Source: a virus (Duplodnaviria > Caudoviricetes). Taken from it: a DNA stretch of 56,763 bases. The notes under the pieces are model-generated. The model did no database searches and had not been told where the DNA came from. It was given only the letters and a program-made list of their open reading frames with translations. Made by a program: the position numbers and the translations under genes. Each line of letters starts with the position of its first letter. Position 1 is the first letter of the stretch. Below are positions 29,119 through 32,005 of the stretch, in pieces. The DNA is taken from positions 1 through 56,763 of IMG/VR virus record IMGVR_UViG_3300048672_000414; one strand, 5' to 3'.

Positions 29119-29916
29119 ATGACAACAACATATAAGCCCACAGAGGGTATGGCAAGTGCCGCCAGGCGTGCCTTAAAGTGGAAAGAGGAAGGCAAACCCG
29201 GCGGAACAGCCGTAGGTCTTGCACGCGCTAATCAGCTAAAAGATCTGGAGCCTCTATCGGAGTCTACCGTACTACGTATGTACGGCTTTTTCTCACGTCA
29301 TGCTGTAGATAAGCAGGCTACGGGGTTTAGTAGCGGAGAAGAAGGCTACCCTAGTCCTGGACGAGTTGCTTGGGACTTATGGGGCGGAGATAGTGGTGAG
29401 TCTTGGAGTGCCACTAAGCGAGATCAAATTATGCGTGCTCGTGAGGGCAAGCAGCTTACAAAATCAGAGATTAATATGACAGAACTACAGCAGACGGTTA
29501 CTACCGCATTTAATGCAACCTTTGTGTTTTACCTAAAAGCACATAGTTTCCACTGGAACGTGGAGGGTCGCGACTTTCAAGAATATCATGATCTTTTTGG
29601 CGATATTTATGAGGAAGTTTATGATAGCATCGACAGCTTTGCTGAGCGTATTCGTACTACACAAGCCTATGCGCCTTACTGCCTAGAAGATATTGTTGGC
29701 GGCAGTCCAGTACTAGAAGAAAATACACTAGTTACCACTAACCGCGACATGGTTAGTAAGCTGCTGGTGGACAACGAGCAGCTTATTATACTCTTACGCA
29801 GCGCATATAATGTGTGCGACCTAGCAGGTGAGTTTGGCTTTGCTAACTTCCTTGCTGATCGTATTGATGCACATCGCAAACATGGCTGGAAGCTTCGCGC
29901 CTCTCAAAAGCTATAA
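29119..29916 (+). CDS. dps: Phage domain fused to a Dps/mini-ferritin
   Basis: C-terminal HWNVEGRDFQEYHDLFGDIYEE...DSFAERIR...H.W.L; N-terminal ~115-aa domain with FFSRH and VAWDLWGGD. Confidence 0.88.
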   Translation: MTTTYKPTEGMASAARRALKWKEEGKPGGTAVGLARANQLKDLEPLSESTVLRMYGFFSRHAVDKQATGFSSGEEGYPSPGRVAWDLWGGDSGESWSATKRDQIMRAREGKQLTKSEINMTELQQTVTTAFNATFVFYLKAHSFHWNVEGRDFQEYHDLFGDIYEEVYDSIDSFAERIRTTQAYAPYCLEDIVGGSPVLEENTLVTTNRDMVSKLLVDNEQLIILLRSAYNVCDLAGEFGFANFLADRIDAHRKHGWKLRASQKL

Positions 29917-29920
29917 ATAG

Positions 29921-29957
29921 AAAAAGCCCCTAAACTGCAACAGTTTAGGGGCTTTTT
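29921..29957. terminator. Bidirectional terminator between the convergent dps genes
   Basis: AAAAAGCCCCTAAACTG-CAA-CAGTTTAGGGGCTTTTT. Confidence 0.92.
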
Positions 29958-29961
29958 GTTT

Positions 29962-30405
29962 TTAGGGCTTATTAGCACTTACTAACAAGTACTCGGCCTT
30001 ATTTAAGTTTTTAGAAAGGTGTCCTAGAAGATGATACATACCATGCTCACCTGCAACTTCCAGAGCCTTGCAAGTACTGGAAACCAGTGAGTTTAGTATT
30101 CTGCAGTCATTTAGTAAGATTGCTAACATCTCACGGTTACTAGGCACATTACGTGTATCTTGTATTGCACTAAGAACTTTTAAGTCTTCAAAGTTTGCTG
30201 CAACGTACATACCCATATTGCGTAAACCTTCGGCAATACAGTCTAGCTGCTTGTACGCCTTATGTGACAGCTTATCAAATAGTTTGTGGTACTCTACAAA
30301 GTTTTGGCCCTCTACATTCCAGTGGAAGTTTTGCGCTTTTAGTCCAAACGCAAGTAAGGTAGCAAAAACTTTACTAACTTGTACTTGTAAATTTTCGTCA
30401 GCCAT
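29962..30405 (-). CDS. dps: Second, divergent Dps/ferritin-like protein
   Basis: NFHWNVEGQNFVEYHKLFD...LDCIAEGLR; AAGGAG RBS. Confidence 0.85.
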   Translation of the reverse strand: MADENLQVQVSKVFATLLAFGLKAQNFHWNVEGQNFVEYHKLFDKLSHKAYKQLDCIAEGLRNMGMYVAANFEDLKVLSAIQDTRNVPSNREMLAILLNDCRILNSLVSSTCKALEVAGEHGMYHLLGHLSKNLNKAEYLLVSANKP

Positions 30406-30421
30406 GGGGCACTCCTTGTTA

Positions 30422-30958
30422 TTATATTATGTGCCATGCCGCAGCGCGGTATACGAGCTGCAAGCATTCATAGGGTTCTTGTAAAATTTTAGTGGATGCT
30501 CCATCAATAAGACTGCCGTCACTGGTTTTAACAGTGACTTTCCTGTTGCCTATTGGAGCACCCATTTCTAGCTTAATAATAATCCAATTACCAATTTCAG
30601 TATTTGGAGGTAAAGTAACGGTAATAGGAATAGTACACTGTATACCCACATAAGTATCATTATCTAGGAGAGTGGTATTAATTTTTACTAGACGAGTAGA
30701 TAGTGGATTTGCACTGCCTTGAGGTCCAGGAGGCCCGGGTTCACCTTGCGGTCCTGGGGGCCCTGGTTCTCCATGAATACCGGGCTCGCCTTGAGGTCCT
30801 GGTTCGCCTTGAGGCCCAGTAATGCCAGGTTCCCCTTGTGGTCCGGGAGGGCCTGCCGGCCCCGGTAGACCTGTGCCACTTATAATGCTATTTATTAGCA
30901 AATCGCGGTCGTCTAGTATAAGTGGCGGTAGCATTGGATACAACATTGTATTAAACAT
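30422..30958 (-). CDS. Collagen-like protein with a C-terminal beta domain
   Basis: About 17 contiguous Gly-X-Y triplets, then ITVTLP...G...IIK...IDG...L......L.LVY...W. Confidence 0.85.
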
Positions 30959-30962
30959 ACGT

Positions 30963-30992
30963 AAAAGCCCGCCTGCTTTTGGCGGACGGGCT
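30963..30992 (-). terminator. Intra-operon terminator/attenuator
   Basis: - strand AGCCCGTCCGCC-AAAA-GCAGGCGGGCTTTT. Confidence 0.7.
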
Positions 30993-30999
30993 AGACTAC

Positions 31000-31914
31000 T
31001 TAACGAATGTTAGTATTTGTATTAGCTGGATTGGCGGTCAGTGTTCCGCTTCCAACATTAATTGCTTCATTATTACTACGAATTTGCTGTGCTAATAGCG
31101 CAATGTAGTTACCAAGCTGAGCAAACTGTTGTTGGTTTTGTTGTTGCTGCTGCATTTGGTTGATATTGTTAGTAGTAGTTACCTCAATACCACGAGTACG
31201 TTCAGCAATACGGCTATCTGTGCGTAGTTCTGCTAGTGCTGCATTAGCATCAGCAAGTTGACGTTGCAGATTCATTTCATACTGCTGAGTGATTAGTGCA
31301 CGAGTCTTATCGCCATCAGTAGTTACGGTCTTTTGCGTTTCATTAGCGGTAGCCATTAAATTGGTGTTAATAGCATTTAGCTGCTGCGCTAATACCATTG
31401 CATTAGCTGTAACTGCCTCTTTAGTCGCATCTACGCGTGTAGCAAGCGAACTAGCGACACTATTTAAGGAGGCGTTAATAGCTGCACTTTGTGAAGCTTG
31501 GCTGCCTTCCATTGCTGCAGTTGATACTGCAACTGCTTTATCCACAGCTCCAATACCTGCCATCAAGTCCATATTAGCCTGGTTCTGTTCCGGTGGGTTA
31601 CGCAGAGTAGCTCCAGCTACTGCTCCGGCCCCATCTCCACCAAACAAGTTACCGTTATTACGTAGCAGACTACCTAAGATAAGTCCGCCGATTAAGCCTC
31701 CGCCGCCTGATCCAAATAGGCCATCTCCGCTTGAGCCAGCACCTAGGATCATGTTTGGTGTCATTACTTCTGCCATGGTTTTATCTCCACTTTGTTGTTG
31801 TACTTGGGAAGTCATTTGGTTTTGTGCTTGTGTGACTTCTTGCTTTATATTACTCAGCAACTCACTTACGTTTTTGGATGTAGGTAGCGGCTGAGCAGAG
31901 ATTACTTCTGCCAT
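31000..31914 (-). CDS. Gly-rich hydrophobic segment plus long Ala/Gln coiled-coil protein, function unknown
   Basis: [31 protein letters not shown] followed by heptads and poly-Gln; second in-frame start at 31776. Confidence 0.85.
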
Positions 31915-31976
31915 AAAATGGCTCCTCTTTTATTTTTTATTATCGGTAGCCATGTACTTTTTCGAGTACAAATACA

Positions 31977-32005
31977 ATTATACTCTTAAATGGCATAATT
32001 GTCAA
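31977..32005 (-). promoter_or_regulatory. Consensus sigma70 promoter for the three-gene island operon
   Basis: - strand TTGACA-17 nt-TATAAT, AAATTTTT upstream. Confidence 0.88.

Follow-up and report, generated by a model that had tools for sequence, protein, structure and literature searches.

A conserved p304-Coll gene cassette at the arm junction of a T5-like phage genome, a candidate accessory fiber module with separate Dps genes

Background

The gene pair discussed here lies in IMG/VR virus record IMGVR_UViG_3300048672_000414, a complete record of 56,763 bases (hereafter the window), and encodes p304, a protein of 304 residues from a family new to the libraries and papers searched, and Coll178, a collagen-stalked protein of 178 residues. 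Its closest described counterparts are EPclA and EPclB of E. coli O157:H7 prophages, which join a beta N-domain, an Ala-rich trimeric coil, a collagen region and a C-domain; they are trimeric and, in the sections of that report drawn on here, are interpreted as side-tail proteins (PMC3368898). The same blocks appear in the same order when distant forms of p304 are set beside Coll178, but EPclA and EPclB are each one polypeptide, whereas here there are two genes with a terminator between them (PMC3368898). The same sections of the report describe no glycine-zipper stretch like that of p304, and the C-domain there is PfC rather than gp9/gp10-like (PMC3368898). No sequence similarity of p304 to EPclA/EPclB was found, and the N-domains have no Pfam match.

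Several other systems resemble single parts of the locus. T4 fibritin and the P22 tail needle gp26 are long polar helical rods that end in short elements for attachment or folding, and a likeness of gp26 to class I fusion proteins (a Gly-rich hydrophobic segment, then a long helix) has been pointed out. The long polar rod is common to these proteins and p304, but there is no detectable homology, the periodicity of p304 is hendecad-like rather than heptad, and its N-terminus is variable or absent. The N-terminal domain of T4 gp9/gp10 and the XD domains of CBA120 TSP4 have the same fold as residues 84-178 of Coll178, and the arrays of Coll paralogues in relatives of the window recall branched tailspike sets; the domain is, however, C-terminal behind a collagen stalk in Coll178 and N-terminal in T4 and TSP4, and there is no baseplate context here. 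Morons are promoter-gene-terminator units known classically from temperate phages, and p304 is like them in having its own promoter and hairpin and in occurring as a lone inserted unit. Lambda S105/S107 is a dual-start lysis gene; p304 also has a conserved second start, but its extra N-terminal piece is 46 residues rather than 2, and it has no lysis-family match. The two Dps mini-ferritin genes next to the pair are like Bacillus brevis Dps (1n1q) in their PF00210 domain and His/His/Asp/Glu motif, present in both window copies, and differ from typical Dps in being phage-encoded, in forming two diverged copies (37%) and in the fusion of one to a head-protein N-domain. Among the papers searched, no description of the p304 family or of the cassette was found.

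A first-pass annotation, made from the DNA letters, had proposed one operon whose p304, collagen and Dps products may co-assemble. The feature is real and its gene anatomy correct; as a description, a p304-Coll cassette with unrelated Dps genes beside it fits better. The explanation that we favor, at a probability of roughly 0.4, is a portable accessory fiber cassette formed by p304 and Coll178, with the Dps genes as separate auxiliaries.

The p304-Coll cassette and its conservation

The region stands exactly where the plus-strand and minus-strand arms of the genome meet. All four of its open reading frames (ORFs) exist as the first-pass annotation had them, and its parts are as follows.

32076..32096, minus strand: terminator-like hairpin with T-run, ending the upstream class II ribonucleotide reductase (RNR) gene; -17.6 kcal/mol, z -6.2, 0/200 shuffles as stable
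31977..32005, minus strand: sigma-70-type promoter TTGACA-17-TATAAT, 12/12 matches, with an A/T-rich tract upstream
31000..31914, minus strand: p304, 304 residues, founder of a phage family; an ORF with no Pfam, PHROG, NCBIfam or PDB match
31774..31788, minus strand: internal ribosome-binding site GGAG (31788-31785) and Met47 ATG (31776-31774), predicted start of a 258-residue isoform
30963..30987, minus strand: GC-rich hairpin with TTTT between the p304 and Coll178 genes; -18.5 kcal/mol, 0/200 shuffles as stable
30422..30958, minus strand: Coll178, 178 residues; Pfam Collagen PF01391 over residues 30-82, 39.9 bits against a cutoff of 27.2
29962..30405, minus strand: Dps147, a Dps mini-ferritin of 147 residues; Ferritin/Dps PF00210, 38.9 bits against a cutoff of 24.5; phrog_3636
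29921..29957, both strands: bidirectional intrinsic terminator common to the two convergent Dps genes; 17 pairs, -25.3 and -26.4 kcal/mol, 0/200 shuffles as stable
29107..29916, plus strand: N-domain-Dps fusion of 269 residues (265 from the ATG at 29119); PF00210 over residues 134-265, 64.7 bits; phrog_2859 over residues 10-112

The neighborhood of p304 was compared across 80 IMG/VR loci (71 with distinct p304 DNA), which were picked by peptide patterns from the window p304 and are therefore biased toward relatives of at least 48% identity. For the neighborhood counts all ORFs were clustered and 7 loci with less than 700 nt downstream were left out, leaving 73 loci, namely 35 T5-like, 23 of a second lineage and 15 others. 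A Coll178-family gene follows p304 on the same strand within 4 kb in 68 of the 73, and is the very next gene in 64. By class the partner is present in 35/35 T5-like, 22/23 second-lineage and 11/15 other loci. In 58/73 loci the partners include a Gly-X-Y run of at least 6, and they range from one to four paralogous fiber-like proteins per locus, 32/73 loci having two to four Coll paralogues. Of the five loci with no called partner, one (L032) is an ORF-calling artefact in which two genes were merged, and four (L040, L043, L062 and L075) are without a partner by profile search as well.

The pair occurs in three settings. At the T5-like junction the order is RNR, p304, Coll and sometimes Dps, facing a convergent N-domain gene and PhoH; in the second lineage the pair lies among UvdE-like, RNase H-like and small genes; and in two loci (L007 and L042) TerL is followed by p304, Coll paralogues and then virion or tailspike proteins. 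Adjacency conserved in 68/73 loci over three genomic contexts supports a functional link between p304 and the collagen protein, as judged from gene order. Dps is patchy by comparison: a same-strand Dps gene follows p304 in 22/73 loci (21/35 T5-like, 1/23 second-lineage, 0/15 others), and its place varies, since in L015, L022, L057 and L063 it lies between p304 and Coll. The conserved unit is thus p304 plus Coll, and Dps a lineage-specific neighbor, a passenger of the T5-like lineage. The co-occurrence expected by the first-pass annotation is accordingly found for collagen genes and is patchy for ferritin-like ones. As a side observation, a second, unrelated ferritin-superfamily gene, for rubrerythrin (PF02915, E 3e-16, at L054:5846-6304), follows the cassette at a distance of a few genes in 8 second-lineage loci, in phages without Dps.

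Three cultured phages carry the gene: the N4-like Acinetobacter phage At2, the myovirus Iodobacter phiPLPE (gp38) and the myovirus Pararheinheimera KLER1-1 (gp74). Dickeya phage Sucellus was discounted as a fourth carrier, as its match covers just 39 residues. The homologue stands directly after a 1348-residue tail protein in At2 and after a 2288-residue tail fiber in locus L085, and phiPLPE gp38 adjoins the tail-fiber-like gp36. The gene is missing from cultured relatives of At2, from phiPLPE-like phages and from cultured T5-like phages, so p304 is accessory. A prophage origin was rejected: a search of 185,579 species-representative genomes gave only two matches, both contigs of metagenome-assembled genomes, which argues that the family belongs to virulent phages. 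The label "putative tail-fiber" on phiPLPE gp38 was given no weight, because the unrelated gp77 bears the same label. That protein (L089 42097-43104) is an E/K/A-rich coiled coil encoded between rdgC and bet, and its label is likely a mis-annotation in the public record.

The p304 protein

No family in Pfam, PHROGs or NCBIfam matches p304, its profile finds nothing among PDB sequences (best E 0.85), and in the ESM Atlas it meets unnamed viral clusters only; the first-pass annotation likewise could match the layout to no named system. Relatives are nevertheless abundant, at least 2070 at E<=0.001 among 7999 candidates scored, and the profile gathers 372 clusters at 50% identity, 233 of them at E<=1e-10. 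An alignment of 44 family members has a mean column identity of 57% and many invariant positions, among them the G73/G77/G81 ladder, RNPPEQ.QANM, DG.KTRAL and the final N-T-N-I-R.

From its N-terminus the protein consists of a variable helix (16-42), an invariant, glycine-zipper-like hydrophobic stretch (about 58-104), a long polar helix (108-284) and an invariant Asn/Thr-rich tail. The AlphaFold2 (AF2) model contains the short helix 16-42 and a single helix 108-284 with a confidence score (pLDDT) mostly above 90, and leaves 42-105 without confident structure. In composition p304 is 56% A/S/T/N/Q and 16% charged. The Gly-rich stretch followed by Ala/Gln heptads that had been read from the letters is there in its first part and in the Ala/Gln/Asn/Thr-rich helix, but not as heptads: 3.5-residue power is near zero over 108-284, and the peak, confined to residues 150-200, is hendecad-like at 3.63-3.67 residues. 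The Kyte-Doolittle hydropathy of the Gly stretch, in a 19-residue window, is 1.57 in the window p304, 1.75 in At2 and 1.65 in phiPLPE, and peaks at 1.21 in L085.

The first 46 residues are variable, and many members begin at Met47, which is at least 90% conserved and at which the short-form lineages start exactly. In 24/24 distinct long-form genes picked up by a motif search, a Shine-Dalgarno (SD)-like 4-mer stands 4-18 nt 5' of the Met47 ATG; in a control from which two truncated genes were dropped, the site was present at Met47 in 22/22, against 8% of other codon positions. The residues encoded over the site differ (LKE, SGD, KGEGK, TEGKT, NEETK). Conservation of the SD-like site and the ATG implies that there are likely two p304 isoforms, of 304 and 258 residues.

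Some distant relatives have a beta-rich N-domain of about 90 residues or longer low-complexity extensions. Pfam found nothing in ten N-terminally extended relatives beyond a chance-level match to Glyco_hydro_17 (E 0.0076), and a search for longer relatives, itself weak evidence, found no fused or longer form at E<=1e-5. One sequence, P0136 (402 residues), joins 277 N-terminal residues of E/K-rich coil, with a tape-measure-like hydrophobic Gly-rich segment, to a C-terminal part of 125 residues from the p304 family; the sequence is a natural chimera or could be an assembly artefact. An ORF of 201 residues lies antisense to p304 (31289-31894, plus strand), an artefact produced by the Ala/Gln-rich coding strand. 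In five relatives such an antisense ORF exceeds the real p304 gene and misleads longest-ORF calling.

Coll178, a collagen-stalked protein of fiber type

The collagen repeat named in the first-pass annotation is confirmed by Pfam. In Coll178 a conserved N-terminal motif precedes 18 Gly-X-Y triplets (30-83) and an eight-strand beta-sandwich (84-178), and the family alignment has the same plan, with the motif PFGWP...P..DD.DLFIN, a Gly-X-Y stalk and a C-domain of about 85 residues. For the C-domain the AF2 model, at pLDDT values of about 90-98, has a sandwich of eight strands. Compared with the PDB by Foldseek, it matches the N-terminal XD domains of CBA120 TSP4, T4 gp10 and gp9, the Klebsiella phage KP1 baseplate and the Acinetobacter phage Solidus tailspike, with root mean square deviations (rmsd) of 2.0-3.4 A over about 100 columns, E-values of 7.5e-6 to 3e-3 and a probability of 1.00. 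In BFVD there are at least 488 viral matches at E<=0.001; among the 50 matches listed, nine are named as baseplate, tail, fiber, tailspike-like or structural proteins and four as "collagen triple helix repeat", the names including Gp9/Gp10 baseplate protein, minor tail protein, tail fiber, pectate-lyase tailspike and collagen-repeat protein. Sequence profiles give weaker signals, to phrog_972 (E 0.0019) and to the N-terminus of T4 gp34 (E 0.011). The gp9/gp10-type family PF07880 is not matched by Coll178, and a paralogue scores 19.4 bits, under the cutoff of 25. Paralogues without collagen have tail-fiber-like N-termini ("T..YGVVKVGSGI").

We conclude that Coll178 is a fiber protein of the tail-fiber/tailspike type, and its modeled fold suggests a place on the virion. 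Two other identities were rejected: BclA (1wck) matches the collagen part only (E 0.027), and no C1q, TNF or BclA domain is among the Foldseek matches listed for the C-domain; the capsid spike gp52 of Pa223 is the top Foldseek match (E 8.4e-7) but superposes with an rmsd of 28 A over 187 columns. A complex prediction with three copies each of p304 152-304 and Coll178, using their own alignments, scored 0.00 against a mark of 0.32; controls were not run, and it gives no verdict.

Expression signals

The promoter of the unit is one of only three perfect TTGACA-17-TATAAT sites in the window. Promoter-like sites between 27000 and 35000 are not in excess (13 observed against 14.2 expected from shuffles), so the case for this one rests on its perfect match, its position and its conservation in relatives. 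The upstream RNR gene has its own terminator, which makes the unit self-contained and isolates it from the replication arm. Downstream, no minus-strand promoter-like site was seen from 32005 to 29155, so that expression of Coll178 and Dps147 would have to come from read-through of the hairpin after p304.

That hairpin, with its stem-loop at 30987-30967 of the minus strand and a run of just four U, may be a leaky terminator or a 3' stabilizer, as predicted from its fold. A counterpart of -11.4 kcal/mol or stronger, at most 68 nt past the stop codon, was found in 58/58 distinct loci. At least four T occur in the next six nucleotides in 30 of the 58, with 23 different stem sequences among these 30, and in 56 of the 58 a GC-rich stem lies directly 5' of the next gene's SD site. 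The hairpins were folded sequence by sequence; RNAalifold on a MAFFT alignment gave no pairs, the stems being out of register. These signals suggest co-transcription of the unit, with p304 in excess over its partner.

The operon layout of the first-pass annotation thus stands: the consensus promoter (31977-32005), the internal attenuator (about 30963-30992), the shared bidirectional terminator (29921-29957), the self-contained position between the arms and, as an expectation from the internal hairpin, the excess of the first protein. Its likening of the promoter to those of the structural genes agrees for the hexamers and the A/T-rich upstream tract but not for the spacer, where the structural promoters at 523, 11205 and 23331 have the motif CCCTC(G/A)TGG and the p304 promoter does not. 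In these plus-strand promoters (523-552, 11205-11233 and 23331-23359) the motif stands directly 5' of the -10 hexamer. The promoters at 27315 (plus) and 54661 (minus) have a near-identical spacer, CTAAACCGC.GCA.TG, and the two groups look like two promoter classes by their spacers.

The Dps genes

Dps147 starts 16 nt past Coll178, with its own AAGGAG, and is the Dps-like protein that the first-pass annotation had placed in the operon. The convergent second dps is indeed convergent and has a Dps domain, but it is not a plain dps: an N-domain of about 120 residues, unrelated to Dps, precedes the Dps domain (122-268), which is 37% identical to Dps147. Both proteins match phrog_3636 (E 4e-23 and 9e-27). 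The His/His/Asp/Glu motif of Dps147 (FHWNV, YH, D..AE) aligns identically with that of Bacillus brevis Dps 1n1q and is also present in the 269-residue protein; these two His, the Asp and the Glu are what we take to be the inter-subunit ferroxidase residues of Dps. Both copies fall below the cutoffs of the NCBIfam Dps equivalogs (35.6 against 114), and exact functional equivalence is not claimed. The simplest reading makes both auxiliary genes that would keep iron and peroxide in check during infection.

The N-domain (29107-29481) occurs as a separate gene beside PhoH in 29/35 T5-like relatives. Its homologues, at 35-62% identity, form the extreme N-terminus of the "major capsid" fusions of S-CBS1/S-CBS3 and Roseobacter CRP phages (in S-CBS1 gp04 the order is N-domain, weak S78 protease, capsid), and in Vibrio phages it heads a coiled protein of 659 residues encoded between portal/MuF genes and the capsid gene. 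It was not found in the window's own protease-capsid fusion, and ESM Atlas scores for it were all below 0.9. Homology of this kind hints at a head-interior address, and by analogy with encapsulin cargo the fusion may be a mini-ferritin targeted into the capsid. A homing endonuclease gene (28167-29051, minus) splits PhoH from the N-domain-Dps gene, and the two adjoin in relatives; a similar gene is present in only 6/80 loci, at other positions.

What the cassette may do

On the accessory fiber explanation, host RNA polymerase would start at the consensus promoter and much p304 would be made, probably as 304- and 258-residue isoforms from two starts. Most transcripts would end, or be stabilized, at the conserved hairpin, and the read-through share would encode Coll178, which would trimerize via its Gly-X-Y stalk and be tipped by the gp9/gp10-type sandwich, the kind of module by which tail fibers and tailspikes dock to baseplates and to one another. 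p304, a low-charge A/Q/N/T-rich rod of about 26 nm if a straight helix, would most likely serve, in abundance, as shaft or anchor of a virion fiber or whisker that is accessory and non-essential, and Coll178, in relatives with up to three more paralogues, would sit on that shaft. The Dps genes, lodged at the same arm junction, would share only the read-through transcript and act alone in the infected cell, by taking up iron and shielding the DNA. This explanation is supported by the mobile, tight pairing of p304 with fiber proteins, its tail-protein neighbors and places within structural modules, its low-charge A/S/T/N/Q composition, its conserved, structural-protein-like expression signals and the one-chain analogue EPclA/EPclB; we infer the virion location and any contact between p304 and Coll178.

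A number of observations weigh against a fiber. The p304 core (Gly stretch, rod and C-tail) is constant across sipho-, podo- and myovirus genomes and the N-terminus variable or absent, which is the opposite of an ordinary tail fiber and hard to fit with docking on different virions. Eight homologues without any Coll partner (L040, L043, L062, L075, L085, At2, KLER1-1 and phiPLPE) have a C-tail no less conserved; five of the lone copies (L040, L043, L062, L075 and KLER1-1 gp74) stand on the strand opposite to their neighbors, and p304 is often found among early or nucleotide-metabolism genes. The phiPLPE record carries the remark "confirmed by MS" (mass spectrometry) on gp34, gp35 and gp63 but not on gp38, the virion placement of p304 comes from context and composition rather than directly, and the Gly stretch has a borderline transmembrane hydropathy.

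That hydropathy (1.57-1.75), together with the invariant G73/G77/G81 spacing, would also suit a p304 inserted in a membrane of the infected cell, with the GxxxGxxxG-type stretch as an oligomerizing transmembrane helix from which the polar rod projects. We consider this doubtful, though deserving of serious attention. Its role could be, for example, superinfection exclusion, lysis timing or an envelope-spanning tether, with the isoforms acting as regulator and effector in the way of dual-start holins, and with Coll178 docking on p304 or co-traveling. A core conserved independently of morphotype and host speaks for such a protein, as do the autonomous promoter-gene-terminator layout with lone opposite-strand copies among early genes, the conserved internal start at Met47, and the accessory nature of a gene missing in close relatives of At2, in phiPLPE-like phages and in cultured T5-like phages. 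In At2, moreover, none of the three small ORFs that separate the homologue from the endolysin/Rz-like spanin has a hydrophobic segment, so there is no other holin candidate there. A still more specific proposal, which we hold to be somewhat improbable, is that p304 represents a new class of morphotype-independent, self-contained gene for a membrane-active rod, a fusion-peptide-like glycine zipper joined to a rod whose length of about 26 nm comes close to the width of a periplasm, in two isoforms, which would pierce or tether the envelope or anchor collagen fibers. However, the stretch has only about 11-19 hydrophobic residues, with 9/19 Gly or Ser and a peak of 1.21 in L085. Neither a signal peptide nor a basic N-terminal flank is present, and the AF2 model gives the stretch no structure. 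A membrane protein overlapping the endolysin and a transmembrane-plus-coil protein are already encoded in the window (23420-24928), low-charge A/S/T/N/Q rods are typical of extracellular fibers, and virion assembly better accounts for the tight link to collagen/gp10-type proteins that have no signal.

The rod might instead be an assembly factor, a trimer that nucleates or chaperones the folding of collagen or fiber proteins and is left out of the finished particle, parallels being T4 gp57A and fibritin acting in fiber attachment. The absence of a mass spectrometry remark on phiPLPE gp38 and the conservation of the core while partners differ would follow, p304 adjoins fiber genes in most contexts, and an excess over the partner fits the conserved hairpin. 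But p304 stands alone and far from fiber genes in KLER1-1, L040, L043, L062 and L075, chaperones are seldom conserved to such an extreme over a full 250 residues, and known fiber chaperone genes usually lie downstream of their client; this role is quite unlikely. Least credible is what the first-pass annotation had proposed, a single iron or oxidative-stress coat, fiber or membrane structure assembled jointly from p304, the collagen protein and Dps. One operon, with a 16-nt gap between Coll178 and Dps147 and no minus-strand promoter-like site between 32005 and 29155, agrees with it, as do same-strand Dps in 21/35 T5-like loci and rubrerythrin a few genes downstream in 8 second-lineage loci. 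Its p304-collagen link is upheld by the 68/73 loci, but Dps drops out as a structural partner, being missing from 51/73 loci and variable in position; the homologues of At2, phiPLPE, KLER1-1 and L085 have no Dps nearby, and Dps carries every motif of a common soluble mini-ferritin of the dodecamer-forming kind and has no added domain by which to dock. For an iron or oxidative-stress structure as such, neighborhood was the sole basis, and that part of the proposal is not supported.

Other features of the window

The record is classed as linear, with a CheckV completeness of 54, and the DNA runs that contain it are freshwater metagenomes. Its DNA polymerase is 48% identical to T5-like phage polymerases (Vibrio pVp-1, Salmonella Stp1) and its protease-capsid protein has 909 matching records, mostly T5-like; by these matches the window is taken to be about half of a T5-like siphovirus. 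The rest of its gene content is summarized here.

572-27282, plus strand: structural arm, with TerS, TerL, portal, prohead protease-capsid fusion, adaptor, tail terminator, tail tube, 2332-residue tape measure and distal tail proteins, then the lysis cassette
23420-24928, plus strand: parts of the lysis cassette, namely a 109-residue transmembrane-plus-coiled-coil protein and a 156-residue membrane protein (phrog_6637) overlapping a 154-residue endolysin (phrog_7), with two 45-residue ORFs between
minus strand: replication arm, with class II RNR, dUTPase, a flap-endonuclease-like exonuclease, SbcCD, helicases, PolA, primase, DnaB and NAD ligase

The lysis cassette (23331-24928, plus) lies behind a perfect TTGACA-17-TATAAT promoter, and no lipobox o-spanin was seen in it. 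As a holin or spanin of this window p304 was rejected, there being 0 PHROG families for it and for its At2 and phiPLPE homologues, and the endolysin and membrane protein lying at 24013-24928, 6 kb away. In the structural arm a single ORF of 652 residues (4704-6662, plus) encodes a prohead protease (TIGR01543) fused to the major capsid protein; in cultured T5-like phages the tblastn match covers two separately annotated genes. The tape measure protein (11300-18298, plus) has 2332 residues, T5 pb2 being about half as long, and would predict an unusually long tail. Including the copy beside PhoH, there are three homing endonuclease genes of GIY-YIG type and one of HNH type (28167-29051, 42792-43688 and 52564-53475, minus; 3032-3466, plus).

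Conclusions

The p304 family is new to the libraries and papers searched. It comprises thousands of aquatic phage metagenome sequences and members in cultured phages, annotated as hypothetical or mislabelled, and few proteins of these genomes are as conserved as p304, in which dozens of polar residues are invariant. The "iron coat" story is unsupported by the comparative data, and the Dps fusion is a candidate for capsid targeting. The cultured hosts, Acinetobacter tandoii, Iodobacter and Pararheinheimera, make the question of what p304 does directly testable. If it is a fiber shaft, these phages would share an exchangeable adhesion cassette of two genes, found across tail morphotypes; a membrane-active p304 would be a new kind of phage envelope effector.

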